DNA from: Chiloscyllium plagiosum
Lineage: Eukaryota
Assembly: GCF_004010195.1 (NCBI RefSeq)
Contig: NC_057757.1
Span: 5,969,202-6,003,619, forward strand
Direction of reading: 5' to 3'
DNA length: 34,418 bases
The notes beneath the pieces were generated by a model, which saw only the letters and a program-made list of their open reading frames with translations, was not told the origin of the DNA and did not search any database. The position numbers and the translations under genes were made by a program. Positions 5,745-27,186 of this stretch are shown in pieces (position 1 is the first letter of the stretch; each line of letters begins with the position of its first letter).

Positions 5745-7480
5745 ATGGATACATCCAGCACAGACACAGACTCTTCGGTCCAACCACTCCATGCCAACCA
5801 TTATCCCAAACTACATTAGTCCCACACCTGCCTGCTCCTGATCTATATCCCTCCAAACCTTTCCTCTTCATGCGCTTATCTCAGTAGCTCAGTATGTTGT
5901 AAGTGTGGCCTCATCCTCTGGAAGTTTATTCACACACGAATGTGTAAAAGATTTGCTCCCCCTGCTTTGTTTTTTTAAAATGTCTCCCCTCTCACCTCCA
6001 AAACATTACCCCCTAGCCCCAATCCTAGGGAAAAGACACCTGTCATTAAGGAGGAGAAAGTGAGGACTGCAGATGCTGCAGATCAGAGTCTAGATTAGAG
6101 TGTGGTGCTGGAAAAGCACAGCAGGTCAGGCAGCATCCGAGGAGCAGGAAAAGCGACGTTTCGGGCAAAAGCAGAAAACATCAATTTTCCTGCTCCTCGG
6201 ATGCTGCCTGACCTGCTGTGCTTTTCCAGCACCACACTCCAACCACCTGCCATTAACCCTATTTCTACCCCTCACGATTTTATAAATTTCCATAAGGTCA
6301 CCTCTCAACCTCCTACCCTCCGGTGAGAAACCTCTCAGCCTATCTCCTCGGGGGTGGAGTCGGAGGTAGATAGGATAGTGAAGAAGACGTTTGGTATGCT
6401 TTCCTTTATTGGTCAGAGTATTGAGTACAGGAGTTGGGAGGTCATGTTGTGGCTGTACAGGACATTGGTTAGGCCACTGTTGGAATATTGCGTGCAATCC
6501 TGGAAAGATGTTGTGAAACCTGATGTTGTGAAACTTGAAAGGGTTCAGAAAAGATTTACAAGGATGTTGCCANNNNNNNNNNNNNNNNNNNNNNNNNNNN
6601 NNNNNNNNNNNNNNNNNNNNNNNNNNNNNNNNNNNNNNNNNNNNNNNNNNNNNNNNNNNNNNNNNNNNNNNNNNNNNNNNNNNNNNNNNNNNNNNNNNNN
6701 NNNNNNNNNNNNNNGGTGCTGGCAGGTGGGACTAGATTGGGTTGGGATATCTGGTCGGCATGGACGGGTTGGACCGAAGGGTCTGTTTCCGTGCTGGACA
6801 TCTCTATGACTCTATGACTAGGGGGTAGATTTTTAAGGTCAGAGAAGAAAGATTTAAAAAGGACTTGAGGGGCAACATGTTTAAGCAGAGGGTGGTTCGT
6901 GTGTGGAATGAGCTTTCATAGGAAGCGGTGGATGTGGGTATGGTTACAACATTTAAAAGACATTTGAAGAGGTACATGAATAAGAAATGTTTGGAGGAAT
7001 ATGGGCAGAGCAGAGGCAGATGGGACTAGTTTAGTTTGGAAACGTGGTTAGCATGGCTTGGTTGGGCCAAAGGGCCTGTTTCTATGCTGTATGAGTCTAT
7101 GACTCTAGTACCACCCCACCCAGGAATGAATTTACAATGGACTGAACATCATTGACCCATGATTAATGTTCGAGCGGTGAATGTACGTGGCAGTTTTTAT
7201 GAGCTCTGTTTGGATTTATTGCCAGCATTTGTGTCGTAAGAGCTGAGGAGCTGAGAAAAAATTCAGGTACAAAGAACACAGAAATGACAGTGCTCTCATT
7301 TAGATGGGCATAACTCTTATTGCTTTCCACTGGGGTAGTGTCACAGAGTCATCCGGCACTGAAAGAGACCCTTCGGCCCAACCAGCCCGTGCCGACCACA
7401 ATCCCAAACTAAACTAGTCCCACCTGCCTGCTCCTGGCCCAGATCCCTCCAAACCTTTCCTAGTCATGGACCTATCCAGT
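5745..7480. mobile_element. Cluster of CR1 LINE 3' fragments in both orientations (includes 142-N gap at 6573-6714)
   Basis: Plus-strand EYRSWEVML.LYRTLVRPLLEYCVQ...LERVQKRFTRMLP; several CR1 3' tails (gggccgaagggcctgtttc...(ctatga)n). Confidence 0.85.
6050..6243. mobile_element. Short inverted (palindromic) Penelope-like remnant, family A
   Basis: Two opposed arms (gtggtgctggaaaagcacagcaggtcaggcagcatccgaggagcagg and its reverse complement), flanked by a 13-bp duplication cacctg(t/c)cattaa at 6037-6049 and 6244-6256 inside a CR1. Confidence 0.65.
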
Positions 7481-7625
7481 AGATGCAGGAAGGATGTCTC
7501 CACCCGGCCAGCTGAGGAAGGGGTGGGGCCTAGTTAACCAGGCGCAGAGTCTCAGGATCAGGAGCTATTTCGGACTGAAACGTGGAGGAATTTCTTTGGA
7601 ATCTTTGGAAATCTCTACCCCAGAG

Positions 7626-7848
7626 TTAAAAGTCACACAACACCAGGTTACAGTCCAACAGGTTTATTTGGAAACACTGGCTTTTGGAACGGTGCTCCTT
7701 CTGAACCACCTGATGAAGGAGCGTCGCTCCGAAAGCTAGTGCTTCCAATTAAACCTGTTGGTCTATAACCTGGTGTTGTGTGATTTTTAACTTTGTCCCC
7801 CCCCCCCCCCCCCCCCCAAGTCCAACACCCGGGGTCTCCAAATCATGA
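7626..7848. mobile_element. Short inverted Penelope-like remnant, family B, containing a hammerhead core
   Basis: Arms tcacacaacaccaggtta.agtccaacaggttta and taaacctgttgg.ctataacctggtgttgtgtga; second copy at 20209-20428. Confidence 0.65.
7704..7744 (+). ncRNA. Minimal type I hammerhead ribozyme motif
   Basis: aaccac-CTGATGA-a-GGAGC gtc GCTCC-GAAA-GCTA-gtgctt: intact core, 5-bp stem II, palindromic AGCU stem III, stem I CAC/GUG. Confidence 0.65.
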
Positions 7849-8075
7849 CTATCCCGGCACGCAGTGGAAGGTCAGTGATTGTGTCCGAAGGGAATGTGGT
7901 GATAACGCAGCGTTGAGTGAGATGGTTCAGAGACTCTGCAGGAGGCCCGAGGAGGCCCGAGCGGCCTGTTTCCGCTGACACAGTGTGCTGACTGCAGATG
8001 CGAGCCCGAGAACAGGGAATGGGAAAAAACCTAGTGATCAGAAGAAGGCCCCCCCAACACATTGGTGCCTGACAC

Positions 8076-8170
8076 CACAGTGGCTCAGTGGTTAGCACTG
8101 CTGCCTCACAGCGCCAGGGACCCGGGTTCAATTCCTGCCCTGGGTGACTGTCTGTGTGGAGTTTGCACAT
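8076..8170 (+). mobile_element. HE1-type SINE, 5' part only
   Basis: A and B boxes present; truncated after gtttgcacat. Confidence 0.85.
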
Positions 8171-8919
8171 CACCAGCAACCATCACCGCTGGTCACAGGG
8201 TTCCAGTCCAAAAAGCAACCTCCCCCCCCCCCCTCCCCCGACCATCACTCTCTGTCTTTGACAGTGAAGCCAATTTTGTACTCAGTTGGCAATCGGAGAC
8301 CAATTGCTTTGGTCTGTTCAACAGTCCGCATACTCTGGGAGTAGAGTTCAGAAGCCCTGGCTAAGTGATTACAGAATTGTTACTCTGCAGGAGGAGGCCC
8401 ATCGGCCCATCACAGGCACTTCCAATGAGCATCGCTACCGAGTGGATAGGAACTCCTGGGCTGAACGGCCCACTCTCCCAGCAGCCCGTGAGTCCCGGAA
8501 AGCTGCGTCTCCGACAGTGCCGCCCCTCAGTGCTGACACCACCCAAGTGGGGGAACAGATTTTGTGTGTGTGTGTGAGTCTCTGGAGTGAGGCTTGAACC
8601 TATGACCCTTTGACTCAGGTACAGTAGTGCGCACCGTTGTATCATGCTGGTAATCACTTGTGATCCATACCATCAATGCAATAAAAAAAAAACACCCTTC
8701 TTGGAAACTCCATTTCCTTCTGATAATTTAATGCATAATTCTTCCTGTATGGTTTCATCCCTTTCAGTCAAGATTCCTCTGATACTGAAGCACTCCTTGA
8801 GTTTCACCTTGACCAGAAATTTAACTTTACCTGCTGTACTAATACCATGGCCAGAAGAGCAGATCAAAAGCTAGGAAGCCTAGAACCTACCTTCTCATTC
8901 CCCTGTCTATCGTCTACAG

Positions 8920-9980
8920 GGCATGTGAGGTATTGCATTTTGGTAATACAGGGACTGGACTCATGCTATTAAAAGTAGGGCCCAGGGTAGTGTTGTAGAA
9001 CAGGGAGACTGAGGGGTTTAGGTATATAATTCTTTGAGGTTTGCTTCATGTATAGACAGGTTTGTTAGGAGGGTGTTCAGCAAGCCTGCCTTCATCGCTC
9101 AGAGCTTTGAGCATCGGAGTTGGGACGCTGTGTTGTGGTTGTACAGCACGTTGTGAGGTCTCTTTTAGAGTACTGTTCTGGTCACTTTGTTAGATTAGAT
9201 TAGATTCCCCAGGGTGTGGAAACAGGCCCTTCGGCCCAACAAGTCCACACCGACCCTCCAAAGAGTAACCCACCCAGACCCATTCCCCTACCCTATATTT
9301 ACCCCTGACTAATGCACTAGCACTATGGGTGATTTAGCACGGCCAATCCACCCTAACCTGCACACCTTTGGACTGTGGGAGGAAACCGGAGCACCCAGAG
9401 GAAACCCATGCAGACACGGGGGAGAATGCGCAAACTCCACACAGACAGTCGCCTGAGGCTGGAATCGAACCTGGGACCCTGGTGCTATGAGGCAGCAGTG
9501 CTAACCACTGAGATACCGTGCCCCCGCCCCCTGTTACAGGAAGGTTACAGGAGAGGATTCAGTCAATAGAGGGTTTGAGATCTGACTGGAAAGACTGGGA
9601 CTGTTTTTCACTGGAGCGTAGGACGTTGAGGGGTCACCTTTTTGAGGTTTATAAAATCACGAGGGTTATAGATAAGGGGAATGACCAGGGTCTTTTGCCT
9701 AGGGTGGGGGGAGTTCAAAACTATTTTTAAGATGAGAGGAGAAAGATTTAAAATGGACATTGGGGCAACCTTTTTACACAGAGGGTGGTTCGGGTGTGGA
9801 ATGAACTGCCAGAGGAAGTGGTGGATGTGGGTAGAGTTACAACGTTTAAAAGACATTCAGATAGGTACATGGGTAGGAAAGGTCTGTTCCAGGCTCAGGC
9901 AAGTGGGACTAGCTTAGTTTGGGATTCTAGTTGGCATGGACTGGTTAGACCGAAAGGTCTGTTCCCATGCTGTGTGACTC
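8920..9980 (+). mobile_element. CR1 LINE 3' fragment with an HE1 SINE (9190-9523, minus strand) nested inside
   Basis: FSLERR.LRG.L.EVYKI and RVWNELPEEVVD remnants; the reverse SINE starts with (ttaga)n. Confidence 0.85.
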
Positions 9981-9989
9981 TCAGTCAGG

Positions 9990-10475
9990 AGTATGATGGA
10001 ATATTCCTGACTTGTTGAGGGCAGCTCCAATAACGCTCAACAAAATCTGACACCATTCCAGGACAAAGCAGTCTGCTCGACTCGCACCAGATCTAATACC
10101 GTCAACTATCCACTCCATCCACCATCGACGCACAGTCGCAGTAGTGTGTACCGTCTACAAGATGCACCCCTGCACCTGCCAAACCCACAGCCACTTCCAT
10201 CCAGAAGGACAAGGGCAGCAGATACATGGGAACGCCACCCCCCCTCGCAAGTTCCCCTCCGATCCACTCTCCCTCCTGACTTTGGAAATGCGTAGCCATT
10301 CCTTCAGTGTCGTTGAGTCAAGATGCTGGAACGTCCTCTCCCCAGGGGCACTATGGGAGTTCCTCCAGCTGTTCAAGATGGTGGCCTCGCCACCGCCTTC
10401 TCAAGGGGCAATTAATGCTGTGCCCAGCCAACGGCACCTAAATCCTGTCAGTGAAATAAAAATCAATGAGTAAAA
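9990..10475 (+). mobile_element. 3' end of a second LINE family (CR1/L2 group)
   Basis: cagctccaa.aac.ctcaa...gacaccat.caggacaaagcag...gtgtgtacc.tctacaagatgcac motif and an A-rich end. Confidence 0.55.
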
Positions 10476-11910
10476 ACCCCTTCTCCCATCCCGACCCATT
10501 TTCTCTTTTGGAATAGTCAAACAGGAAGGAAACCTCAGGTTCAAAAGCGACAGAGAACATTCCAAAAAAAATTCCTCTCCTTTGATCTCCAGTGATCTGT
10601 GCCAGCAAATTGACCATGTGTTATGGAATCACAGACACAACAGTACAAGAAACAGCCCAATGGGTCATTCCAGTAAATCAATGAGGGGTTAGCCAGTCTA
10701 ATCCCTCTTCCCATTAATTGGTCCATATCTCTGCAGATCCTGACACCCTTTAAATGCATTGAGGGTTTGAACCATCTGAGGCAAGGATTTCCATCCTCTA
10801 AGTCGAAAACAACTTCCTCGTCTTCCCTCTACTAGAAACAGGGGCAGGGCATTCAGACCATGACACCGTCATGGCTGAGCGATTCCTTCAATGCCCTTTA
10901 CCCAAGTCCCCATTACCCTGTGTGCTCCTGGTAAACAGAAATCTCTCAATCTTACCCAAAACATACTCAAAGACTGAGCTCCTGCAGCCCTCCGTGAGCA
11001 GGTCTACAACACTCTGAGTAAACAAGTTGCAATTCATCACAGGCCTGAGTTTTAAAAATCTGTTGTGGTTCTGCTCAATGTTTGTGAGAAGATTTGTAGC
11101 TCGGGTGCTCGTTAAAAATCTGTGCCCCTAATCTTTGACTCTCTGCTGAGTTAAAGGGATCCCTTCCCGACCATTCTGTTCAGGCCCCACAGGAACCGCA
11201 ATCAAATTTCCCATCAGCCGTCTCTGCTCCAAGCTGAGCAGTTATCTGGGCAGACGCACTCCTTCAAGATAGCATGATCTCTCCACAACCCACCGCGCCC
11301 TCTGGGTAAAGGGTGACGCAATCCCAGCTGAGGCCCACGCTAGTTTGTGTCATTCATTCCCAAGCTGGCTGGTCGAGGCTGGTATTTATTACCTATCACT
11401 AACCGCTCTTGAACTGACTGACTCACTCAGCCGTCTGAGAGCGGAATTCAGGGTCAATGTGTGGCTCGCTGTGAGCTGAGAGCCAAGTGTAGGCCAAAGC
11501 CCCTGTAAGGTTGGCAGATTTGCTTCCCTGAAGGGCGTTAGTAAACTGGATGGGGCTTTTCAACTATCTGGTTCATTACAGATACTAATTCCTTTAATTG
11601 CAGTTGTATTAATCAATTTCATTTAAGTGACCCAGTTGCTTTGATTGGATTTGAACCCATATCTCCAGAGCATTGGACCAGGCCTCAGCCTTACTGGTAC
11701 AGCAATGTAACCTAATGTTAATATTGTTGGGAGACCTCTCGTTGCTTAAAGTGTGATCGTTAGCCTTGCCTGCCTGTGTAGATAGAGAGGCTGGTGAAGG
11801 TGGCTAGGTCAATGGAACACAATCTTAAGTGAAAAGCCTTGCCAAGCGAGAAGCTGATATCAGAATCCCTTTAGGAATTCAATCCACATGAGTGTGAGGC
11901 GATGCATTTT

Positions 11911-12246
11911 GGGTGGCACGCTGGCTCAGTGGTGAGCACTGCTGCCTCACCGCTCCAGGGACCCGGGTTCGATCCCAACCTCGGGCGACTGTCTGTGTGG
12001 AGTTTGCACATTCTCCCCCCCCGTGTCTGCGTGGGTTTCCTCCCACAGTCCAAAGATGTGCACATTACGATGGATTGGCCATGGGAAATTTTCCCATAGT
12101 GCTCAGGGATGTGTGGGATGTATGAATTATTAAGGAATAATGCAGAGTAATAGGGGAGGGGAATGGGTTTGGGTAGGATACGCTTCGGAGGGTCGGTGTT
12201 CACGTGTTGGGCCGAAGGGCCTGTTTCCACACTGTAGGGATTCTAT
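11911..12246 (+). mobile_element. HE1-type SINE inserted in a CR1 fragment
   Basis: Full-length consensus; CR1 sequence (gaggcgatgcattttggg ... aacaaggcaagggaatac) resumes after it. Confidence 0.9.
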
Positions 12247-12326
12247 AAACAAGGCAAGGGAATACATGATGGACAGTAGGACCCTGGCAAACACTGAGGA
12301 TCAGTGTGCAAGTCCACCAGTACAGG

Positions 12327-12645
12327 TTAGATTAGATTAGATTCCCTACAGTGTGGAAACAGGCCCTTCGGCCCAACAAGTCCACACCAACCCTCCGAAG
12401 AGTAACTCAATCAGACCCTTTTTCCCCCTGACTAACGCACCTAACCTGTGGGCAATTTAGCACGGCCGATTCACCTGACCTGCACGTCTTTGGACTGTGG
12501 GAGGAAACCGGAGCACCCGGAGGAAACCCACACAGACACGGGGAGAATGTGCAAACTCCACACAGTCAGTCGCCCGAGGGTGGAATTGAACCCGGGTCTC
12601 TGGCGCAGTGAGGCAGCAGTGCTAACCACTGAGCCACCATGCCAC
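12327..12645 (-). mobile_element. HE1-type SINE, tail-to-tail with the previous copy
   Basis: Reverse complement of the consensus. Confidence 0.9.
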
Positions 12646-13076
12646 ACCAAAAAGGTATCAGAATATAACATGTTAATAAGGCATAGGGCTTACTTACCTT
12701 TATTAGCCAAGGGATAGAGTTTAAGAGCAGGGATATTATGGTGGAATTGTATAAAATGTTGGTTAGGCCACAGCTAAAGTATTGCTTGCAGTTCTCAAAT
12801 TTCACATCGTAAAGTAAAGATAAACTCCCCATAGTCCAAGCAGATCATGGAACTGGTCTCACCACCAACTGGTGGTGGTTTAACCTGACGGTGACCACGC
12901 CTCAGGTGAGGGGACAGGTTGAGAAGGAGAATCCTTCACAGTTACGTCACTGAGCAGAAACTGAAAGCACTCCATTGGCATCATTGTGCATTGCAAACTA
13001 GCCATCGAATATAACGAAACCCTGTCAATCCCCATTCTAGGAAGCAGGTGATAGCACTGGACAGGTTACAGAGAAG

Positions 13077-13590
13077 ATTTACCAGGATGTTGCCCTGGGG
13101 CTGGAGGGATTTACCAGGATGTTGCCCTGGGGCTGGAGGGATTTACCAGGATGTTGCCCTGGGGATGGAGAGAGTTACCAGGATGTTGCCCTGGGGTTGG
13201 AGGGATTTACCAGGATGTTGTCCTGGGGCTGGAGGGATTTACCAGGATATTGCCCTGGGGCTGGAGGGATTTACCAGGATGTTGTCCTGGGGCTGGCGGG
13301 ATTTACCAGGATGTTGTCCTGGGGGTGAAGGGATTTACCAGGATGTTGCCCTGGGGCTGGAGGGATTTACCAGGATGTTGCCCTGGGGCTGGAGGGATTT
13401 ACCAGGATATTGCCCTGGGGCTGGAGGGATTTACCAGGATGTTGCCCTGGGGCTGGAGGGATTTACCAGGATGTTGTCCTGGGGCTGGAGGGATTTACCA
13501 GGATGTTGCCCTGGGGCTGGAGGGATTTACCAGGATGTTGTCCTGGGGCTGGAGGAATTTACCAGGATGTTGCCCTGGGGCTGGAGAGAT
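13077..13590 (+). repeat. 32-bp minisatellite (about 16 copies) expanded within a CR1 fragment (about 13035-13900)
   Basis: Unit accaggatgttgccctggggctggagggattt recurs at 13081, 13113 ... 13561; flanks read RLQRRFTRML and ERLDRLGMFSFE. Confidence 0.95.
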
Positions 13591-13904
13591 TCAGTGTTGA
13601 AGAGAGATTGGACAGACTGGGAATGTTTTCCTTTGAGTAGAGGGGATTGAGAGGGGAGCTGGTTGAGATGGATCAAGCTGAGGGGCACAGGCAGGAAGAA
13701 CCTTATCTCTTTGGGGAATTACAGGGGGGGGGGTGAGAGCGGGGGGAATAGATTTAAGGGAAAGTGCAGGAGGCTTCCAGGAGATGTGGAGACAATCGAT
13801 TTCTCCCAGAGGAGTGTGAAAGTGGAACTCGCTGTCTGTGAGGAGGGTAGGCGCAGAAGTCTTCAGAACATTTATCAAGTGTTTAGTTGTGATGCTAAGA
13901 CATA

Positions 13905-14570
13905 CATCATCATCGTCGTCGTCATCATCATCAGCGGCCCATCGTAGATGAGGGGGATTCACTTCCACCCTCAGCGCAAGTTGTGTAGGTGGCTGTACAC
14001 ACTGATACCGCTACGGCAGGGGCAGTTTGTGGTCATGGAGGGGGTGGGTGGGGTGTTGGTGTGGCAGCGTGCCCCTTCCTCCTTTTCCCCGACGGCAAGT
14101 CTCGAGGTGCTCCACACCTTCCTCCCATTTGGATGGTCTCGGGCCAGAGATTCCTGGGGAAGAGTGTGTGGGAACGCTGCACTTCCCCATTGAGGCCCTT
14201 GAGGGGCATCCTCTGTCCGCTTGGGGCTGGCCTGCCGTTTCGGAGGGCTCCTGGTCGGGGACTCTCGTGTGGGTCACATGGACGACGTGCCCAGCCCCCC
14301 ATCGTAGTCAGTCGAGGCAGGGGGGAGGGGGGTCAGTGCCTCGATATTGGGGATATTGGCTTGGTCGAGGATACTGGTGTTGGTGACTCTATCTTCCCAG
14401 CGGATTTGTAGGATGTAGCTCAGTCAGGATTGGTGGGACCGCTCCAGCACTTTGAGGAGCCCGCTGTAGACAGTCCGTATCTCAGAGCCATCCAGGAGGG
14501 TGGGAACCACCATAGCCCTGTATACCATGAGCTTGTTGTCAGATCTGATGTTATAGTCCTTGAAGACATA
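13905..14570 (-). mobile_element. RTE-clade LINE 3' fragment
   Basis: Minus-strand KLMVYRAMVVPTLL.GSE...LKVLER.HQ and ASMGKC...EGVEHLE; (GAT/GAC)n 3' tail at 13905-13933. Confidence 0.75.
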
Positions 14571-14838
14571 CAAGGGTATGGGCCAACTGCTGGGAAATGG
14601 GGTAAGAATAGTGAGGTGACTGTTTTTGACTGGCATGAAAGCAATGGGCCGAAGGGCCTTTTCCTGTAGAGATCCACACCTTTCTCGTGTAAAACACTGC
14701 AGAGACATGGAACCTCTCTCCCACTAAACATAGCGACGACTTGTTTAATTAATCGATTCAAAATCTGATAAAAAGTCAAGGACGTTAGGTGACACAAAGC
14801 CAAGATGGATGGCATTAAGACAATCTCATTGGCTCTCA

Positions 14839-15038
14839 TTTCCTCTGGAGGCTCCAGTTTCCTCCCACACTCCAAAGATGTGCAGGTTGGGGTGAATTGG
14901 CCACACTAAATTGCCCGTGGTGTTAGGTGCAGTAGTCAAAGGGAAATGGGTCTGGGTGGGTTACTCTTTGGAGGGTCGGTGAGGACTAGTTAGGCCGAAG
15001 GGCCTGTTTCCACACTGTAGGGAATCTATTCTGATCTA
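14839..15038 (+). mobile_element. HE1-type SINE, 3' half
   Basis: Consensus central domain and tail. Confidence 0.85.
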
Positions 15039-15051
15039 AAAGAAGCAGATG

Positions 15052-15500
15052 GGAGGCAATGGGGGTTTCATCGTGAAACGATTAACTCTACAGACCCAGG
15101 TAGTGTTCTGGGATATCTGAGTTGGAATCCCACTGGGGTAAATGGTGGAATTTGAACTCAGTTAAAAAATAAATCTGGAATTAAGAGTCTAATTGTCAGA
15201 TTTATTTTTTAAAAAATGCACCCAGATCAGTAATGCCATTGAGAGAAAGGAAATCTGCTGTCCTTACACAGTCTGACCTATGTGTGACCCAGTCCTGATG
15301 AAGGACTTCTGCCCGAAACGTCGATTTTCCTGCTCCTCGGATGCTGCCTGACCTGCTGCGCTTTTCCAGCGCCGCTCTGATCTAAACTATGTGTGACTCC
15401 AGATCCACAGCAATATCGGGGACTCTTCACTGCACTGTGGGCGATTAGGGACGGGCTAATTAATGCAGGACTAGCCAGTGATGCCCACATCGCGTGAATG
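15052..15500 (+). mobile_element. Second tRNA-like SINE family, interrupted by a Penelope-like fragment
   Basis: ggtggaatttgaa...aaatctggaattaagagtct...ggaaatctgc..tcctta...atgtgactccaga.ccacagcaa core. Related copies at about 4200-4360 (-), 11360-11710 (-), 18800-19470 (-), 19500-19790 (+), 21730-21990 (-) and 28225-28440 (+). Confidence 0.65.
15293..15386 (+). mobile_element. Penelope-like family A fragment beginning with a hammerhead core
   Basis: tc-CTGATGA-a-GGAC ttct GCCC-GAAA-CGTC-gatt, flanked by the duplication ctatgtgtgac(t)ccag at 15278-15292 and 15387-15402. Confidence 0.65.
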
Positions 15501-15764
15501 TCATACAGCAAAGGCAAAAGGAACTTTCATACCGGGAGTCACAGCGATAGCTGGGGTAGGGCTGGAGAGGGAAATTGCAAAGATCTGGAGATATAGGAGA
15601 GGTGTGGGTGACAAGAGGGACGACTTGGATGGATGTTTCAAAGGGTCAGGACGAGAACAATGGGGTTGGGTTGAACATGTGAAGACTGGGCTGGTGCCAA
15701 GACGGAAACTGAGTTTGACAGAGACCTTTGGACGCCCCGTTATCGGCTCGGGTTAGTGCTGGGC

Positions 15765-15926
15765 TGTGATTTAATCCTCCTGGAGGTTAATGTGTGCAAT
15801 AAAACCATACCAAGATGCAATTAAAGATTGGTAAGGCCACACCTTTGGTGATTAAGCGCCTTTAAAGCTGCCAGTGACCCTCGGGTGCTGCTATTTCGTC
15901 ACGCCCCGAGACTGTGGGTGCTGCAA
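15765..15926 (+). promoter_or_regulatory. Candidate proximal promoter / 5' UTR of the ZAN-like gene
   Basis: Non-repeat sequence directly upstream of the ATG with TATA-like TTTAAAG (15861), ATTGG (15827), GCAATAAAA (15796), GGTTAAT (15785) and TAATCC (about 15772). Motif inspection only. Confidence 0.4.
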
Positions 15927-15994
15927 ATGGGCCGCTCCAAGTTCCAATTTTTGAAGACTTTGGCTTTTCTCGCGTTGAGTGTCGGGCATGTGAG
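15927..15994 (+). CDS. ZAN: Zonadhesin-like gene, first coding exon (signal peptide)
   Basis: ATG (caaATGg) MGRSKFQFLKTLAFLALSVGHV: basic n-region plus hydrophobic core. Ends at a perfect donor AG|gtgagt in phase 2, exactly the phase needed by the 22153 exon. Confidence 0.72.
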
Positions 15995-16413
15995 GTGAGT
16001 ATCCAGAATCAACTCGTTGGCAAGGGGGAGGGTGGTCTTGTTGTTGACTCGTCCCTCACTCTTCTGGTCGAGATTTGAGTTGGATGTCGTCCCTCTCTGC
16101 CCGGACTGGGCTGGCGTTTCCCCAATTTGTTCACGGTTATGTCAGGCGGAGTTGCCATCACCTCACTGGCCCACACCATCACCAGCTTGTGAGCTCCAAG
16201 GGCGAGGGAGGCCTCACTGGGATACCCCGGCTGTTCACATTCCAAGGAAGGCTCACCGTGTCCGAAACGTCAACTCTGACCTCTCCCCACAGATGCTGCC
16301 AGGGCCTGCTGAGCTTTACCAGCAACTTCTTGTCGAGTTATCCCCCCCCCCCCCTTCACTGATGACTTGTTAAAATAAAATTTCCGAGGAGGTAAGCCAT
16401 AGCTAGCAAGCCT

Positions 16414-16695
16414 GGCGGCACAGCGGCTCAGTGGTTAGCACTGCTGCCTCACAGCACCAGGGTCCCAGGTTCGATTCCAGCCTCGGGCGACTGTCTGTGT
16501 GGAGTTTACACATTCTCCCAGTGTCTGCGTGGGTTTCCTCCCACAATCCAAAGGTGAATTAGCCATGTTAAATTGCCCCATAGTATTAGATACATTAGTC
16601 AGAGGGAAATGGGTCTGGGTGGGTTACTCTTCGGAGGATCAGTGTCGACTGGTTGGGCCGAAGGGCCTGTTTCCACACTGTAGGGAATCTAATCT
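16414..16695 (+). mobile_element. HE1-type SINE
   Basis: Consensus with internal deletions. Confidence 0.9.
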
Positions 16696-17654
16696 TATAA
16701 CATTGAGAAGGTGGGGATGAGGAACCTTCTTTGACCCACTCGCAGTGCTCTCCTGGGTTTTGACTCAGTCACAGTAAAGAATTAAAAGCAGGAGGAGGCC
16801 ACTCGGCCCCTCTGGCATTCGATAAACTCATGGCTGAGTAAACTGTGGTTTCAACTGCTTGTTTCTGTGACCCCTTTTTTAGCCGAGAACCCATCTCCGT
16901 CCAAAGTATCCGATGATCTCCATCTCCACAGGTCTCTGTGATCACATGACCCTCTGAGAGAAAAGGAAATCTCTCTCTTATCGATCAAAAATTCATTTAA
17001 ATAAGCTTTACAAGCACCCCACCTCCACTTACTTTCTAGGGAAAAGAAACCTAAAAACTAACGACCCTCTGAGAGTAGAAACGTTTCCCCGTCTCCTTCC
17101 TCAACTGGCCGGCACATTTCTGTGTTGTAGTCTCATCACTTAAAAGCAAGCAAGCAAGAGGAAATGTCATGCGAGCTTTGCCCCCGTTGTCACTGAGATT
17201 TAAAAGCTACCATTACTGAGAGTGATTCAAAGTGTACAGTTTGAATAACGTGTTTCTTCTGAATCATAGTCTCACTCAGCATTACCACTGCACTCTGTTC
17301 CCAGCCAGATATAGACCCATTTATATAATTCAGTCACTTCCAAATGTGGCTGGGCACTGTCATCCCACTAATTGCTTGGAAGAGGCTCTTGCTATGTTGG
17401 CAAGTGCAGCGGCTGTCCTGCACACAGCGATCTCCCAGCCTCAGCACCACACTGAAGGATTACTTTCATCTGCTCTTGAACTGGAGCTGCTCTTCCAAGG
17501 GAGCTCTGCTGACCCTGGCACTGGGAATGTTTGCTTGCTGTTCCCAGTAGGTAGCTGGCAGTCAGTCTGTGTGTGGGACAGGTGGGAGAGTTTCAGAGTT
17601 TCAGTCAGTAACAGTGGGGCTGATGGAGATAAAAATGTAATTACACAACCTTGG

Positions 17655-18520
17655 TGTCTGTATATCTGTGTGTGTGTGTCTGTGTGTGTGGGTGTGTGTG
17701 TGTGGGTGTGTGTGGGTGTGTGTGTGTGNNNNNNNNNNNNNNNNNNNNNNNNNNNNNNNNNNNNNNNNNNNNNNNNNNNNNNNNNNNNNNNNNNNNNNNN
17801 NNNNNNNNNNNNNNNNNNNNNNNNNNNNNNNNNNNNNNNNNNNNNNNNNNNNNNNNNNNNNNNNNNNNNNNNNNNNNNNNNNNNNNNNNNNNNNNNNNNN
17901 NNNNNNNNNNNNNNNNNNNNNNNNNNNNNNNNNNNNNNNNNNNNNNNNNNNNNNNNNNNNNNNNNNNNNNNNNNNNNNNNNNNNNNNNNNNNNNNNNNNN
18001 NNNNNNNNNNNNNNNNNNNNNNNNNNNNNNNNNNNNNNNNNNNNNNNNNNNNNNNNNNNNNNNNNNNNNNNNNNNNNNNNNNNNNNNNNNNNNNNNNNNN
18101 NNNNNNNNNNNNNNNNNNNNNNNNNNNNNNNNNNNNNNNNNNNNNNNNNNNNNNNNNNNNNNNNNNNNNNNNNNNNNNNNNNNNNNNNNNNNNNNNNNNN
18201 NNNNNNNNNNNNNNNNNNNNNNNNNNNNNNNNNNNNNNNNNNNNNNNNNNNNNNNNNNNNNNNNNNNNNNNNNNNNNNNNNNNNNNNNNNNNNNNNNNNN
18301 NNNNNNNNNNNNNNNNNNNNNNGTGTGTGAGAGCAAGTATGTGTGTGTGTGAGAGAGCAAGTATTTGAGTGTGTGTGAGAGAGTGAGTGTGAGAGAGTGA
18401 GTGTGTGTCTGTGTGAGAGAGAGAGTGAGTGTATGTGTGAGAGAGAGTGAGTGTGTGTGTGTGCCTGTGTGTGAGAGAGAGAGAAAGAGAATGTGTCTGT
18501 GTGTGTATCTGTGTGTGCAC
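17655..18520. repeat. (TG)n/(GA)n compound microsatellite spanning a 594-N gap (17729-18322)
   Basis: Directly visible. Confidence 0.95.
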
Positions 18521-19071
18521 TATCTCTGTATCTACTTAATCAGAAAATGGTGAACAGTGTGAGTGGGAACCGCTATGGTCAGTTGGCAGATCACACAGGC
18601 ACATTAATCTCGGGACAGTCTGATTGCTTGTATTCAAAATGTTTGATAGTACAGTACAGAAACAGGCCATTCAGCCTGACAGATCAATGTTGGCATTTAC
18701 TCTTCCCCCATTTTACCTCACCCTATCTTCCTTTATTTAGCTTCCTCTTAGCATCTGTCCCACTTGCTTCCTTTGGACTGGGACAGTGACTTTTTGTAAT
18801 TCACTCATGGATGTCACAACTTCTCTGACTAGGCAGAATTTGTTGCCCATCCCTAATTGCCCAGAGGATAGTTAAGAGTTAACCACATTGCTGTGGGTCT
18901 GGAGTCACATGTTGGCCAGACCAGGTAAGGATGGCAGATTTCCTTCCCTCACGGATAATAGGTTTTCCCGGTATTTGGCAATGGTGGTCACGAGACTCTT
19001 AACTTCAGATTATTTTTATTTAATTCAAATTCCACCCACGGCGAGATTCAAACCCAGGTCCCCAGAACATT

Positions 19072-19414
19072 GGCAGCACGGTGACTCAGTGGTTAGCACT
19101 GCTGCCTCACAGCACCAGGGTCCCCGGTTTGATTCCAGCCTCGGGTGACTGTCTGTGTGGAGTTTGCACATTCTCCTCGTGTCTGCGTGGGTTTCCTCCG
19201 AGTGCTCCGGTTTCCTCCCACAGTCCAAAGATGTGCAGGTTAGGGTGGATCGGCCGTGGGAAATTACCCATACAGTGTTCAGAGATGTGTAGGTTAGGTG
19301 CATTAGTCTGGGTAAATATAGGGTAGGGGAATGGGTTTGGGTGAGAGACTCTTTAGAGAGTCGATGTGGACTTGTTGAGCCAACTGGCCTGTTTCCACAT
19401 TATAGGGATTCTAT
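19072..19414 (+). mobile_element. HE1-type SINE nested in a minus-strand SINE of the second family
   Basis: Full consensus; the host resumes at ttagctgagtttctggattaat. Confidence 0.88.
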
Positions 19415-19864
19415 TAAAAAAAATTAGCTGAGTTTCTGGATTAATACTGTAAATAGTGAAAATACCACCAGCTCATCACTCCCCCTTTAACCCCCAGAAT
19501 GGCAATCTGAGAATATTCCGGGAGGGGCAGTTTTAAATCCCGTAGCGGCTGGCAGAATTCCGTTAATAAAATGTGCAATATAAAGCCAGTCTCAGACTGG
19601 GACACCTTTTATTGATGGTTGCAAAAACACCCCACAGATTCGCGAAAGACCTTGAGGGAAGGGAAACGGATCAGTGTCTAGCCTACATGTGACTCCAGAC
19701 CCACAGCAAAGTGGTTGACTCCGAACTGCCCTCTCAGGTCAAGGGGGGCCAGGGACTTTGGGCCTTGCTAGCGGTGCCCATATCTGATGCGAAACATAAA
19801 GAGAGTTTTACAATCCTCATCAATGTGAAATCTCTGCTGTAAATTGGGGAAATTCTTGCTCAAA

Positions 19865-20640
19865 TGAATATGGCGTACAGCACGGAAACAGACCCTTCGG
19901 CCCAACCCGTCCATGCCGACCAGATATCCCAACCCAATCTAGTCCCACCTGCCAGCACCCAGCCCTTATCCCTCCAAACCCTTCCTATTCATACACCCAT
20001 CCAAATGCCTCTTAAATGTTGCAATTGTACCAGCCTCCACCACATCCTCTGGCAGCTCATTCCATACACACACCACCCTCTGTGTGAAAAAGCTACCCCT
20101 TAGGTCTCTTTTATATCTTACCTCTCTCACCCTAAACCTATGCCCTCTAGTTTTGGACTCCCCTACCCTGGGGAAAAAGACCTTGTCTGTTCACCCTATC
20201 TCTGCCCATCATGATTTGGAGGTGCCGGTGTTGGACTGGGGTGTACAAAGTTAACTATCACACAACACCAGGTTATAGTCCAACAGGTTTATTTGGCAGC
20301 ACTAGCTTTCAGAACGCTGCCCTGTATACTCCACAACCCCCTGGTGAAGGAGCAGCGCTCCGAAAGCTAGTGCTTCCAAATAAACCTGTTAGACCATAAC
20401 CTGGTGTTGTGTGATTTTTAACCCTGTCCGTCGTGATTTTACAAACCTCTATAAGGTCACCCCTCAGCCTCCGACGCTCCAGGGAAAACAGCCCCATCCT
20501 GTTCGGCCTCTCCCTGTAGCTCAAATCCTCCAACCCTGGCAACATCCTTGTAAATCGTTTCTGAACCCTTTCAAGTTTCGCAACATCCTTCCTGTAGCAG
20601 GGAGAGCGGAACTGAACGCAGTATTCCAAAAAGTGGCCGA
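19865..20640 (-). mobile_element. CR1 LINE 3' end with a family B palindromic insert (20209-20428)
   Basis: LEYCVQF.SPCYRKDV.KLERVQKRFTRMLPGLEDLSYRER...LFSLERRRLRGDLIEV.KI on the minus strand. Confidence 0.9.
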
Positions 20641-20767
20641 ACCAATATCCTGCACAGGCCACTTAATGAAGCCTCTTTGGAATTTTTTCCTCAGTGGAAG
20701 TTGGATCATTAAATGCATTCAAGGCTGAGTTAGAGGGGTTTCTGATTGACAAGACAGTCAGGAGTTA

Positions 20768-21075
20768 TTAGATTAGATTGCTTACAGTGTGGAAACAGGC
20801 TCTTCGGCCCAACAAGCCCTCACCGGCCCTCTGGAGAGCAGCCCACCCAGACCCATTCTCCTACACCTAACACTACGGACAATTTAGCATGGCCAATTCA
20901 CCCTGACCTGCACATCTTTGGACTGTGGCAGGAAACCGGAGCACCCGGAGGAAACCCACGCAGACACGGGGAGAATGCGCAAACGCCACACAGTCAGTCG
21001 CCTGAGGCGGGAATTGAACCCGGGTCCCTGGCGCTGTGAGGCAGCAGTGCTAACCACTGTGTCACCGTGCCGCCC
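20768..21075 (-). mobile_element. HE1-type SINE
   Basis: Reverse complement of the consensus. Confidence 0.9.
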
Positions 21076-21371
21076 TGGAGAGGCTGGGTGTACCTGGGGA
21101 AGGATGTGGGGGGAGGGGTGGTGGATGACAGGAACATGGAGCCAAGTGTTCAGTCAGGTCAGAAATGACCTTATCACACGGTAGAAGAGGTCCAAGAGGC
21201 CAAATGGCCCGCTTCAATTCCTTATGACTTGACATCTTAAGTGTCTTGTCAAGTGTGGGATGCCTGTTTTTTAATCTTATTGCTTCTGTAGGATGTGGCC
21301 TTCACTGACAAGGTGAACAATTATCCCCCTGTACTGAGTGATTTACTCAACCATTTCACAGGAACGGCAGC

Positions 21372-21705
21372 CGGGGTTTGAGGGTTTGAGCTGCAGGGAG
21401 AGGCTGAATAGGCTGGGGCTGTTTCCCCCTGGAGCGTCGGAGGCTGAGGGGTGAGGCTTGTAAAATCATGAGAGGGGCACGGATAGGGTGAATAGCCATG
21501 GTCTTTTTCCCCAGGATTAGGGGAGTCTAAAACTGGAGGATGTGGTGGAGGCTGGTACAATGACAACATTTCAAAGGCATCTGCATGGGTATATGAATAG
21601 GAAGGGGTTCAGAGGGATATGGGCCAATGGAACCAGATTTATTTAGGATACCTGGTCGGCGTTGAGAGTTGGACCGAAGGGTCTGTTTCCGTGCTGTATG
21701 ACTCC
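21372..21705 (+). mobile_element. CR1 LINE 3' fragment
   Basis: ctggagcgtcggaggctgaggggtga and tail ttggaccgaagggtctgtttccgtgctgtatgactc. Confidence 0.8.
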
Positions 21706-22152
21706 GTTTGCTCTGCGGCGGCTGAGAGTCAGCCATGTTGGTGTGGGTCTGGAGTCACGTGTAGGCCAGACCAAGTAAGGGTGAAAGGTTCCCCTCCTTA
21801 AAGGAGGCATGTGAACCAGTTAGGGATTTTTTTTTCCTCACTCTCAGACAACAATCAGCCACCACTGTCAAGCTCCCCCTCACCAAAGCTAGACCCTCGG
21901 TTCCAGATGTATTAATTTCGCCAGCGACTGTGACAAGATTTGAACCCATGATCCCACAGCATTGGCCAGGCCCATTGGGTTATGGGTCGAGTGGCATTCC
22001 ACCACTGTTGCTTCTCCTTGCGCCCCCCTCCCCATCCCAAACCGATGTTGTTGGGTGAGCACACCAGGGACAGGCCCGTTGCCATGGAGATTTTACTTGA
22101 CTGCCCCAGCGTTCAGGAATAACCCTGATCTTTTCCTTCTCTTCCCTTGCAG

Positions 22153-22196
22153 AACGTCTTCTCCCCAGGATTGCCATGGAGATGGCCCTGTTAAAG
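22153..22196 (+). CDS. ZAN: Zonadhesin-like gene, short linker exon
   Basis: Long polypyrimidine acceptor tttttccttctcttcccttgcag|, donor AAG|gtacgg. 44 bp, phase 2-1, encoding (R)TSSPQDCHGDGPVK; joins the signal exon to the MAM1 exon in frame. Confidence 0.7.
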
Positions 22197-22387
22197 GTAC
22201 GGTGGGGGCAGGGAGGCCGGGTGGGGAAGACATGACCGACTGTCAGGCAGCATTGGCATAGAGAACTGAGATGTCTCCTGCCTGAGGACTGGGAGACAGT
22301 TCAAGCCTTAACATCCTCAATGACTAGATTTCATTGAGAATAGCTGACTTGTACTCACTGGGTTTGTAATGGGTTACCAAACTAGCA

Positions 22388-22535
22388 AGGAGTCAAGATT
22401 AGAGTGGTGCTGGAATGAGGATGAGGCTATTGCCTGAAACGTCGATTCTCCTGCTCCTCGGATACTGCCCGACCTGCTGTGCTTTTCCAGCACCACACTC
22501 TCGACTCTAATCTCCAGCAGTGCCCACTCTCGCTT
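22388..22535. mobile_element. Penelope-like family A remnant, degenerate, with a short inverted arm
   Basis: gaaacgtcgattctcctgctcctcggat.ctgcc.gacctgctgtgcttttccagcaccac. Confidence 0.6.
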
Positions 22536-22614
22536 ACTTTAAACTAGCGCGGCGTTCCCGTTGCCAAGTGGGGGAAAGGGACAAATCTATGGAAAATGAC
22601 AGACAAAACGGACG

Positions 22615-22850
22615 CAAAAAACGGAAATTGCTGGAAAAGCTCAGCAGGTCTGGCAGCATCCGGGGAGAGAAATCAGAGTTAATGTTTTGGGGTTGAGTGA
22701 CCCTTCCTCGGAACTGTTCTGTCCTCAGTTCTGAGGAAGGGTCACTCAAGCCGAAACGTTAACTCTGATTTCTCTCCCCAGATGCTGCCAGACCTGCTGA
22801 GCTTTTCCAGCAATTTCTCTTTCTGATTTACAGCGTCCCCAGTTTCCTCA
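22615..22850. mobile_element. Palindromic Penelope-like remnant, family C, with a hammerhead-like core at 22727-22764
   Basis: Long inverted arms (gaaattgctggaaaagctcagcaggtctggcagcatc...); agtt-CTGAGGA-a-gggtcactcaagcc-GAAA-CGTT-aact. Related copies at about 24020-24210 and 16245-16330. Confidence 0.62.
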
Positions 22851-23244
22851 ATTTTTACTCAGACAAAAATGGCTGGCCATTCCCTTCAGTGGGCCCCGTG
22901 CTAACCTGGAAATGACTCCAAATTTCAATTAGAGGAGCGCAGTAAAGCTGATCTATCCTCTTTAGGATAAAGTGAAAACTACCTTTTACCTTCCACTCTC
23001 CCGGGTACAGAGGGACTCTTACTGACATGACCTTGCTTTTCCCCAATTGATTACTGCTCTTAATCACAGCGAGAGCATTAGCACATGCACACGCCGAGTC
23101 AAGAGACCGGGATTCACATCCCATCCTCATGAGCAATGCATCATCATACGTTTGCACGGGTTACTTAGAAATTATTTAGTGTACACACATTCAACCGACA
23201 AAGAATTTGTAACACTAGCACTCCAACCTGACTCTTTCGAAGGT

Positions 23245-23648
23245 GAAAGTGGGTGCTGCAGATGCTGGAGATTAGAGTCAAGATTAAGTTTGTGTTGGAA
23301 AAGCAAGGGGTGGCACGGTGGCTCACTGGTTAGCACTGCTGCCTCACAGCACCAGGGACCCGGGTTCGATTCCAACCTCAGGCGACTGTCTGTGTGGAGT
23401 TTGCACATTCTCCCCGTGTCTGCGTGGGTTTCGTCTGGGTGCTCTGGTTTCCTCCCACAGTCCAAAGATGTGCGGGTTAAGGTGAATTTAGTCAGAGGGG
23501 AAACGGGTCTGGGCGGGTTACTCGTCGGTGTGGAACGCGTTGGGCCGAAGGGCCTGTTTCCACACTGTAGGGAACCTAATCTAAAAAAGTCAGCCAGCAT
23601 CCGCTGAACAGGACAATCGACATTTCGGGCAAAAGCCCTTCATCAGGA
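23245..23648. mobile_element. Family A Penelope-like arm (minus-strand hammerhead core at 23619-23646) split by an HE1 SINE (23308-23583, +)
   Basis: Reverse complement reads CTGATGA-a-GGGC tttt GCCC-GAAA-TGTC; full SINE consensus in the middle. Confidence 0.75.
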
Positions 23649-24406
23649 ACACTTTCTAACCCAATCGCATCCGATGAACAGTCCCACCCCATCTATTCAG
23701 TCACACCACAATTGCCATCTCTTTCGCCATCGAGCCAGAAGGTTGTGGGTTCATGCCCTATCCCAGGATTTTAGTGTGTAGTTGAGTCCCACACTCCCGG
23801 CTCTTGAGGAAGAGCTGTCGTGTCAGAAATTCCGTCTTTCCGGATGAGGTGATAAGTTGTTACCGCTCCCTCTTACAAACGTCCCCACGGCTCCTGTTGG
23901 GAGAAGAGACGTTGTGAGGGTGGTGGGGTGAGGTGAGTTCTCCGTAGTGTGTAAAGTGCCTAATTCCTAAACCTCAACCGACAGCGAAAACTGTCAAGAC
24001 AAAAAAAAAACCCAAATGAACCGCGGATGCTGTAAATCACAAACAAAACACAGAAATTGCTGGAAACAAAGCTCTGAGGCAAGAAATCAGAGTTAACGCT
24101 TCAAGTCGAGTGGCCCCTTCCTCAATGTTAGGGTCACCTGACCCGAAATGTTAACTCTGCTGTCTCTCCACAGATGCTGAGCTTTTCCTGCAAGTTCTGT
24201 TTTTTGTAGCTGGAACTGCCATTCCCCCATCCCCATTTTAGTGGGAGCTTGCTGCTGCGTTTCTGATGTTCCAACGGTGTGCGTGTTTATCGTCTGTCCA
24301 GGATTTGGCCAAGGGATTACCTCTGTGCGGGTTCCACCTCCTTGGTTACAGTTCCCTCCTGGGGCCCAGGTTACTTGGTTGAAGTGAGTGTCCTTCCTGT
24401 TTGCAG

Positions 24407-24568
24407 ATTACATCACACGCTGTGATTTCAACGATGACGCCAAACCCTACTGCGACTGGGTCCAACCAGTAGGCAGCGACGATGGAGACTGGGACCGCTC
24501 GAAAGGTTCGGTATTAACCAAGCCATTGGAGGACCATCCTGCTCCTTGGGACGGGGCCAACAGGACAG
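24407..24568 (+). CDS. ZAN: Zonadhesin-like gene, MAM domain 1 N-terminal exon
   Basis: Acceptor tccttcctgtttgcag|, donor CAG|gtaggg, 162 bp, phase 1-1. Encodes (D)YITRCDFNDDAKPYCDWVQPVGSDDGDWDRSKG...; resembles mammalian zonadhesin MAM1 (CDFEDDAKPLCDW, recalled). Confidence 0.9.
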
Positions 24569-26090: not shown

Positions 26091-26353
26091 GTTACTACAT
26101 CTACCTGGATACTGTCAAATATCATCCCAAACAGTTCATCCGTCTGGAAAGTTCGACTGTGAATGTCACTGGCGATGTGTGTGTCGAGTTCTCTTACTAC
26201 ATGTATGGAGGGTTTGATAATGGACAGACCCTCAGAGTCCTACTCGCTCAAGACCCAGGCGACATGCAGCTGTGGAGTCGCAACGTATCCCAGAGCCACG
26301 CCTGGCTGTCGGGGTCAGTCACCATCCCGGGGCAGACCAGCGGCACCGTCCGG
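26091..26353 (+). CDS. ZAN: Zonadhesin-like gene, MAM domain 1 core exon
   Basis: Acceptor tttccttgtctttgaaccag|, donor CGG|gtgagg, 263 bp, phase 1-0. Encodes (G)YYIYLD...IRLES...GDVCVEFSYYMYG...LRVLL...LWSR...W...SVTIP, the MAM signature. Confidence 0.92.
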
Positions 26354-27101: not shown

Positions 27102-27186
27102 GTTATTTTTGAGGCGACCCGAGGCGGGAACGACTCGGCTCAAACGGCGCTGGATAACGTTGCCATAACGATGGGGCCTTGCTTCG
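27102..27186 (+). CDS. ZAN: Zonadhesin-like gene, MAM domain 1 C-terminal exon
   Basis: Acceptor ctccttttccaacag|, donor G|gtgagt, 85 bp, phase 0-1. Encodes VIFEATRGGNDSAQTALDNVAITMGPCF (MAM end motif FE..RG......ALD......G.C). Confidence 0.92.

Follow-up and report, generated by a model that had tools for sequence, protein, structure and literature searches.

Minimal hammerhead motifs in short, probably Penelope-derived insertions at a predicted zonadhesin-like locus of Chiloscyllium plagiosum

Minimal hammerhead ribozymes (min-HHRs) of metazoan Penelope-like elements (PLEs) are type I motifs without helix III, with a palindrome at positions 15.2-16.2, an extra nucleotide lying after position 9 and before 10.1, and a G10.1-C11.1 pair (Cervera and De la Pena 2014, PMC4209133). 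In the portion of that article used here, they are mostly dispersed single motifs, with some opposite-strand pairs 100-700 bp apart, reported in the Xena, Poseidon and Neptune PLEs of fishes, coelacanth, Xenopus and reptiles; the same portion of the main text names no sharks. Insertions of endonuclease-bearing (EN+) PLEs show an inverted, 5'-truncated pseudo-LTR (pLTR), an optional tail of 30-40 bp and target-site duplications of 8-10 bp (PMC3846280, PMC8557442). In PAc, the Poseidon element of Anolis carolinensis, the hammerhead is followed by two adjacent reverse-transcription start sites that define the tail, and in vitro, cleavage and extension occur on both strands of the target (Frangieh et al. 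2024, PMC11167929).

The motifs that we analysed in a window of 34,418 nucleotides of Chiloscyllium plagiosum are the genuine minimal PLE hammerhead signature, a further instance of the class described in 2014. The cores at 7710(+), 15295(+), 22731(+) and 23646(-) share one layout: CUGANGA, an extra A, stem II, GAAA, two nucleotides, UH and stem I. A structural descriptor matched the window at exactly these four copies, confirming the coordinates given in a preliminary description of this DNA. Dinucleotide shuffles gave a mean of 0.23 matches (maximum 2; none of 300 reached four), and this mean fell to 0.02 once the 2-nt stem III spacing was required. All four copies have the conserved core CUGANGA...GAAA...UH in type I order, the extra nucleotide between 9 and 10.1 and the G10.1-C11.1 pair; with the missing helix III and the palindrome, this is the anatomy of published min-HHRs (PMC4209133, in part), although the stems are shorter (2-4 bp for stem I and 4-5 bp for stem II, against 4-5 and 7-8 bp in Schistosoma). 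The suggested check with Infernal-type models recovered nothing, as no Rfam hammerhead family matched the whole window or positions 7690-7770 at E<=10. Identity with the canonical type I hammerhead is rejected, given the lack of both a model match and a stable helix III.

Most copies are damaged. The preliminary description had perfect stems and a palindrome in every copy, but only the one at 7710 (1/4) is completely intact. At 15295, stem II was given as GGGC/GCCC and actually reads GGAC/GCCC, with an A.C mismatch; at 22731 just 2 bp of the claimed stem II are in register. The palindrome replacing helix III (AGCU or ACGU) is kept by three of the four, and the fourth, at 23646(-), reads GAAA-UGUC, so that the claimed ACGU is in fact AUGU and no longer palindromic (calculated self-duplex energy +2.6 kcal/mol, vs -1.7 for ACGU). 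Its sister copies A1L, A2 and A3 do have ACGU. Read from such sister arms, paired stems I and II that differ in sequence by family hold at the family level; the paired form of stem II missing at 22731, for example, is visible at about 24131-24144. The predicted cuts at A7738 and C15322 were correctly numbered.

Table 1. Hammerhead copies, insertions and host-gene exons in the window (positions are those of the window; insertion boundaries were placed by eye).
Feature	Position	Strand	Description
Hammerhead, family B	7707..7741	+	Intact minimal; stem I 3 bp, stem II 5 bp, AGCU palindrome; predicted cut after A7738
Hammerhead, family C	22727..22764	+	Decayed minimal; core and 4-bp stem I retained, stem II 2 bp; sequestered in C1 hairpin
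Insertion A1	6053..6239	.	Head-to-head pair; long tail on left arm; 13-bp target duplication; truncation inside stem II, CUGAUGA gone
Insertion B1	7621..7847	.	Head-to-head inverted pair; short left arm (-), right arm (+) with long tail including poly-C run
Insertion A2	15291..15387	+	Single arm; hammerhead 15291-15326, A.C mismatch in stem II, predicted cut after C15322; 10-bp target duplication 15279-15288 / 15388-15397
Insertion C2	16240..16332	+	One degraded arm; mutated core; intronic
Insertion B2	20210..20426	.	Head-to-head pair; left arm long-tailed; right-arm core mutated (CUGGUGA); within LINE fragment; possible 12-bp target duplication, borderline vs null
Insertion A3	22389..22532	+	Degraded core; 8-bp target duplication; short inverted tail piece on 5' side; intronic
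Insertion C1	22615..22856	.	Head-to-head pair; right arm long-tailed; intronic; 9-bp target duplication 22600-22608 / 22860-22868
Insertion A4	23239..23648	-	Single arm; hammerhead 23617-23648, AUGU for ACGU, stem I 2 bp; tail split by SINE-like repeat at about 23307-23585; intronic, antisense to host gene
Insertion C3	24005..24207	.	Degraded head-to-head pair; long tail on left arm; stem II fully paired in right arm; intronic
Host gene, first coding exon (predicted)	15927..15994	+	ATG, hydrophobic signal peptide-like stretch, GT donor
Host gene, short exon (predicted)	22153..22196	+	5' of intron containing A3, C1, A4, C3
Host gene, exon	24407..24568	+	MAM domain start, zonadhesin-like
Host gene, further exons (predicted)	26091-26353 and 27102-27186	+

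The motifs are parts of nine short insertions, among them five head-to-head inverted pairs; the copies at 7710 and 22731, previously taken as stand-alone units, each occupy one arm of a long inverted repeat. In all five pairs, one arm ends 63-74 nt past G12 and the other 98-117 nt past it, with the longer tail confined to one arm (arm difference 30-52 nt, the 52 including the poly-C run), and the centres between GAAA anchors vary from 12 to 64 nt (B1 45, B2 51, C1 64, C3 42, A1 12). Target duplications exceed the 95th percentile of random flank pairs in four of the nine insertions (8, 9, 10 and 13 bp); B1 is among the five that do not, and in four of these no duplication was found. Head-to-head arms, a tail at one end and a variable target duplication are also traits of EN+ PLE insertions (PMC3846280, PMC8557442), but here truncation leaves both arms at 60-120 bp, and the entire insertion amounts to a small hairpin with no ORF. 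Non-LTR retrozymes are likewise short, non-coding, PLE-derived and equipped with type I hammerheads; according to the parts of the sources used here (PMC7229834; bioRxiv 10.64898/2026.07.22.740005), they form head-to-tail tandem arrays with a hammerhead in each unit. Hammerhead-bearing tandem arrays are absent from the window, where arms are single or inverted, and a retrozyme identity is therefore rejected.

The motifs had been assigned to three unrelated families, yet the tails of A and C align with scores of 61-70, against shuffle maxima of 29-36 (0/1000 as high), whereas alignments of B with A and with C are at chance level. There are therefore two lineages, B and A/C. The portion of a Repbase review used here (PMC5753468) holds no name for these repeats.

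The proposal that the hammerheads lie in PLE remnants is supported by the anatomy of motifs and insertions, and by PLE protein fragments beside the motif in contigs of other animals, but the window itself has no PLE ORF. There, tblastn with 120 PLE-type proteins and locus fragments found only LINE-type reverse transcriptase (RT) pieces, none at the hammerhead elements; the ORF link therefore rests on other organisms. A search of metagenome contigs with the core pattern returned at least 121 loci; this sample comes from few data sets and families, its loci are not independent, and their likeness to our cores is partly built into the pattern. Among the matches listed, 25 of 121 have a PLE protein fragment, which lies 5' of the motif in 24 (18 on the same strand, 6 inverted); all 25 come from the 106 loci whose GC is under 50%, against none from the other 15. 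Two features that the pattern did not select also hold: the palindrome is present in 53/54 distinct motifs of low-GC hits, vs 8/14 of high-GC hits, and a stem I of at least 3 bp in 25/54 low-GC motifs, vs a partner-swap mean of 5.3. A B-specific pattern had no match in viral and prokaryote genome contigs, and the general pattern had a single match in viral contigs, high in GC and without stem I.

Some of these loci resemble individual families. One (L052) matches B at 33/35 nt and sits in inverted orientation next to a piece of RT. The relatives of this piece are RT+GIY-YIG proteins, and of the 35 in which a GIY-YIG motif can be recognised, 33 carry the Zn-linker of Neptune/Nematis PLEs. In another (L100) the core is B-like, and of 129 tails its tail matches that of B best, albeit modestly (score 32, reached by 0.25% of shuffles); its upstream peptide resembles a PLE C-terminus by eye only and was not reported by blastx. 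In L105, a PLE C-terminal match (blastx E 3.8e-5) is followed downstream by a C-like core, and a further locus (L039) has two direct motif copies 2.4 kb apart, with no PLE ORF between them. The tails of A and C have no clear relative among the loci listed. As to PLE type, the B-like loci favour the one with the Zn-linker (Neptune/Nematis) over Poseidon. In PAc, the ORF begins in stem II, whereas the core ATG of B and A in the window meets a stop within the arm.

Our results make it very probable that the insertions are remnants of the 3' ends (the end of the pseudo-LTR, the minimal hammerhead and the tail) of two endonuclease-bearing PLE lineages, B and A/C, which were heavily 5'-truncated and have since decayed. 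The hammerhead of the parent element would form stems I and II, and the 4-nt palindrome would pair with a second copy, or the element's protein would help, to complete helix III; the literature suggests a cut after position 17. Insertion would proceed by nicking, followed by target-primed reverse transcription that begins downstream of the hammerhead, at two sites about 30-45 nt apart, and an early stop would leave remnants of 90-250 bp. A second short inverted copy, joined head to head, would give the anatomy that we observed, one arm long-tailed and the other short-tailed. The two-strand cutting and extension of PAc would account for the asymmetric pairs.

The palindromic units might instead be dedicated non-autonomous elements mobilised in trans by PLE protein, and not one-off truncations of full-length PLEs. 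Consistent with this, all nine copies in 34 kb are short and without ORF sequence, mobilisation in trans through pLTR sequences has been reported (PMC3846280), and hammerhead-bearing, non-autonomous PLE derivatives are known, in one chondrichthyan too (bioRxiv 10.64898/2026.07.22.740005). Master copies would not explain, however, why centres differ within a family and the long tail switches sides, as in independent truncations, and a palindromic transcript would bury hammerhead and tail alike; we thus regard dedicated elements as improbable. Much less credible are MITE-like DNA transposons with long terminal inverted repeats, in which the hammerhead would be an incidental or inherited passenger: five of the nine copies are indeed short inverted repeats with flanking duplications, but the ends are asymmetric in 5/5 pairs, the centres vary, the length of the duplications runs between 8 and 13 bp, a single full arm is all that four copies have, and elsewhere this motif is found with its two-end pattern next to PLE ORFs. 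Since termini are not symmetric or fixed, nor is the length of the duplication, we reject a MITE identity.

Several of the insertions lie in introns of a predicted host gene. Five predicted, in-phase AG/GT exons on the + strand lead from a signal peptide-like start to a MAM domain, and place 22731 in the intron 22197-24406. Its reported position, sense-oriented in an intron of ZAN, thus stands in broad terms as to intron and orientation; the gene itself can be called zonadhesin-like, by its MAM domain and by its best named relative, which comes from Chiloscyllium punctatum and is a MAM+VWD protein (56% identity over 89 aa), and no VWD exons were found within the window. In equilibrium folding, the stems of the 7710 hammerhead form with p 0.82-1.0 in isolation and with p<1e-10 in context, where 22731 likewise stays below 1e-10 and 15295 at about 0.01 or less. 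The copies at 7710 and 22731 are enclosed in hairpins of 85-100 bp (B1: arms 87% identical, MFE -127 kcal/mol, z -16.8; C1: 95%, -184 kcal/mol, z -21). These long hairpins also cause matches to MIR856, bantam, mir-2131 and similar Rfam families, all far below gathering scores. Because three of the four copies have broken stems or palindrome, and the two in inverted pairs would be locked in hairpins in read-through RNA, the window copies are most likely inert as ribozymes.

Domestication of 7710, 15295 or the intronic 22731 as active ribozymes regulating the host gene is rated even lower than a MITE origin, in spite of the intact core at 7710, the sense orientation of 22731 and the location of 15295 about 600 bp upstream of the start codon. 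Stem II is broken at 15295 and 22731, in both pairs transcription reaches the antisense arm first, min-HHRs are weak as dimers and inactive as monomers (PMC4209133, in part), and none of the six intronic copies is at once intact, unsequestered and in sense. Cutting of the zonadhesin-like pre-mRNA, as implied for 22731, is unlikely on these folding predictions: although this copy is intronic and in sense, its stem II is broken and its core sequestered, 7710 is hairpin-locked as well, and we reject cleavage of the host intron. Least probable of all is a chance resemblance, for which the missing Rfam match and the unremarkable isolated folds (z -1.5 to +0.1) might be invoked: none of 300 shuffles reached four matches, one core carries different stems in two unrelated lineages, and unselected features recur in other animals.

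Because the class was described in 2014 and the copies are mostly dead, these PLE remnants have little value as a ribozyme discovery. They matter for annotation, since such hairpins look like MITEs or like precursors of miRNAs (one has a score of 81.7 bits against a miRNA model), and as material on PLE transposition, in particular on the origin of inverted ends and of the one-sided tail, and on whether the hammerhead acts as a catalyst or as structure only. Arms end about 55-75 or about 90-120 nt past G12 in unrelated families (B, A, C and two invertebrate-type families), with one of each in every inverted pair. A tentative reading, which we consider doubtful although conceivable, is that the hammerhead fold serves mainly as a landmark setting the start of PLE reverse transcription. 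The two kinds of end would then be left by target-primed reverse transcription of both strands, each from a single start site, while inversion silences the ribozyme and yields a dsRNA hairpin of 60-100 bp; shark introns may then hold very many such hairpins, intact and unsequestered sense hammerheads having been purged. If this is true, the genomes of sharks would offer a large natural data set on two-strand priming versus self-priming.

The four minimal hammerheads put forward in the preliminary description, in insertions B1, A2, C1 and A4, are all present at its positions (see table). They are not a chance set, because a descriptor comprising CUGANGA, GAAA and UH, with stems I and II each required to have 2 bp or more, matched exactly these four on both strands of the whole window, against a mean of 0.23 and a maximum of 2 in 300 dinucleotide shuffles (mean 0.02 once 2-nt spacing was demanded). 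Rfam hammerhead models gave zero matches in the window at E ≤ 10, as would be expected of a form without helix III. The stems and palindrome originally drawn hold for B1 only: stem II has an A.C mismatch in A2 and 2 bp left in C1, and A4 has AUGU where the palindrome is expected. Since stem II is fully paired in the sister arm of C1, the family C form is intact and the C1 copy decayed.

Features of the window (insertions named by family letter; hammerheads by position and strand)
Feature	Position	Strand	Location or remark
A1	within 6037-6300		
B1 hammerhead	7710	+	
A2	within 15260-15460		
A2 hammerhead	15295	+	
B2	within 20150-20500		first coding intron
C2			first coding intron
C1 hammerhead	22731	+	second coding intron
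C tail	22760-22811		
A4 hammerhead	23646	-	second coding intron
C1 sister arm	~24131-24144		
A3, C3			second coding intron
AATAAA/ATTAAA in B arms	7749-7754; 20379-20384		
SINE-like repeat	copies within 1903-30580		e.g. 19071-19420, 20871-21075, 23307-23585
Expanded 52-bp unit	28821-29023; 29942-30430		
LINE-type RT fragments	31062-32742	-	
LINE-type RT fragments	~800-1490; 6327-7100; 19929-20662		
RVT_1 match	31597-31923		E 7.6e-10, LINE-type
32-bp tandem array	13076-13591		
53-bp tandem array	33036-34418		
Second MAM-domain exon	32711-32881		

Self-comparison of the window gave 14 arms in nine insertions. The three families had been described as unrelated, but by sequence they form two lineages, B and A/C, because A and C align over ~90 nt downstream of the hammerhead (scores of 70 and 61, where shuffles reach at most 36 and 29; 0/1000) while B versus A/C tail comparisons were at chance level in 4/4. 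In the A/C tail comparison the degraded C3 scored 27, with a shuffle maximum of 26. The co-variation proposed between families is real, as A and C differ in the core (CUGAUGA versus CUGAGGA), stem I and stem II, but it is partly between relatives.

Five insertions (B1, B2, A1, C1, C3) are head-to-head inverted pairs whose hammerheads meet at a variable centre, the GAAA anchors being 12-64 nt apart. In 5/5 pairs the shorter arm stops 63-74 nt past core residue G12 and the longer one 98-117 nt past it, leaving a tail on one side, and the longer arm may be either one. With boundaries set by eye and 1500 random flank pairs as the null, direct repeats at the flanks lie above the 95th percentile in 4/9 insertions (A1, 13 bp; A2, 10 bp; A3, 8 bp; C1, 9 bp); by the same test B2 is borderline (p 0.09) and no such repeats were seen at B1, A4, C2 and C3. 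A1 and B2 both lie within LINE-like sequences that resemble each other, at almost equivalent positions, and ~8 nt at the long-tail end of B2 are homologous to the target, which suggests junction microhomology. A2 interrupts another repeat, which resumes past the 10-bp duplication and which we take to resemble an old SINE of cartilaginous fishes. The AATAAA/ATTAAA signals of the B arms lie ~10-15 nt past the predicted cut site. In the inverted, 5'-truncated copy and the 30-40 bp tail, which is often confined to one end, these insertions share the structure described for Penelope-like elements (PLEs), and the flanking repeats of some of them resemble the 8-10 bp duplications that also belong to it (PMC3846280, PMC8557442).

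No PLE ORF was found in the window, where PLE-type queries matched LINE RT pieces only. The window also holds at least nine copies of an abundant SINE-like repeat, presumably of tRNA origin, with an internal 52-bp unit that has expanded in tandem. The LINE-type RT fragments are broken, the 32-bp array derives from such sequence, and the very homogeneous 53-bp array (26 copies, 99% matches) continues past the window end.

Matches to the core pattern in at least 120 stretches of metagenome contigs and one in viral contigs gave 121 loci. PLE protein fragments (tblastn E ≤ 1e-4, self-hits left out) occur in 25 of the 121 listed, all among the 106 below 50% GC; the fragment is 5' of the motif in 24/25, on the same strand in 18 and inverted in 6 (orientation counted from the table). 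Pfam identified GIY-YIG in 3/19 scanned ORFs of the loci, 2 above cut-off. Loci L052 and L106 are identical to B at 33/35 nt, and in L052, whose tail also has AATAAA, the motif is inverted beside an RT fragment. Among the 120 listed relatives of this fragment are proteins of turtles, crocodilians and amphibians that carry both RT and GIY-YIG; 35 of the 120 have a recognisable GIY-YIG motif, 33/35 with the Zn-linker that marks Neptune/Nematis PLEs (PMC8557442). Locus L100 is the best B tail match among 129 tails, a modest signal (score 32, next 25.5; 0.25% of shuffles), and the core of L105 is C-like and lies downstream of a match to a PLE C-terminus (E 3.8e-5).

The search pattern itself fixes the core and some of stem II, so we examined unselected features in 123 occurrences, dropping duplicates (L001, L040) and edge cases. 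Among the loci listed, the 4-mer is palindromic in 53/54 distinct low-GC motifs versus 8/14 high-GC ones, and stem I reaches at least 3 bp in 25/54 low-GC motifs, against counts of 1, 7 and 1 after sliding and an average of 5.3 (maximum 12) after partners were swapped. Judged by eye, with ends that run a few bases too far, two large families among these loci likewise show one short and one long class of ends. Six invertebrate-type contigs (L013, L037, L062, L066, L071, L083) have two opposite-strand hammerheads close together, with one arm short and the other long, like the window pairs, in L013/L037 and L071. In L039, AGCU-type minimal hammerheads with a 6-bp stem I form a direct repeat 2365 bp apart (5648 and 8013), with no recognisable PLE ORF between them. 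The loci stem from few data sets and support the motif class, not ORFs of families A, B and C themselves.

On the + strand, five predicted exons bounded by AG/GT can be joined in phase to encode a MAM domain and, at the start, a signal peptide-like stretch. Among named relatives a MAM+VWD protein from Chiloscyllium punctatum is nearest, which is compatible with, though no proof of, a cartilaginous fish and a zonadhesin-like gene. Database proteins P0001 and P0002 look partly mis-predicted, because P0001 starts with LINE-derived sequence and the N-terminus of P0002 matches the second MAM-domain exon in another frame. As the C1 hammerhead falls in the second coding intron of this + strand gene, it is indeed intronic and sense, as first suggested. 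The C tail, also sense and intronic, looks like a splice acceptor, with a branch-like motif and a pyrimidine tract followed by CAG and an ATG. It may represent the end of a PLE intron, or else a cryptic exon, although it lies within the C1 hairpin; A and C tails hold more sense pyrimidine-CAG motifs in the intron.

Cutting of the host pre-mRNA by these copies is unlikely, because they are predicted to be sequestered in hairpins or misfolded, A4, whose palindrome is of wobble type, lies antisense to the gene, and minimal monomers are reported to be inactive and dimers of low activity (PMC4209133; dimer work of Lunse et al. summarised in PMC6765202). In equilibrium folding, both B1 stems form alone (p 0.82-1.0), and in native context an arm hairpin of -127 kcal/mol leaves a stem probability below 1e-10; C1 stems do not form even alone and are negligible in context (-184 kcal/mol). 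A2 is predicted to misfold. These predictions are for equilibrium, but in the B1 and C1 pairs transcription reaches the antisense arm before the sense one.

According to PMC11167929, two RT start sites delimit the tail, cutting and extension take place on both target strands in vitro, and hammerhead cleavage occurs only with protein present and is dispensable for in vitro insertion; RNA-seq reads ending at the cut site are absent. The minimal class is already known. Our literature search brought up no paper specifically on PLE hammerheads of sharks, though supplements of PMC4209133 and bioRxiv 10.64898/2026.07.22.740005 may list shark motifs; the latter describes retrozymes with hammerheads from a single chondrichthyan. 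The asymmetric pairs would have arisen when both strands were primed, at the two start sites; the published alternative invokes self-priming with an antisense template (PMC3846280). We conclude that the minimal hammerheads are real, that most of them have decayed and that they lie in remnants of PLEs. These remnants would stem from truncated target-primed reverse transcription of endonuclease-bearing PLEs, parent elements that may have cleaved as dimers or with protein assistance.
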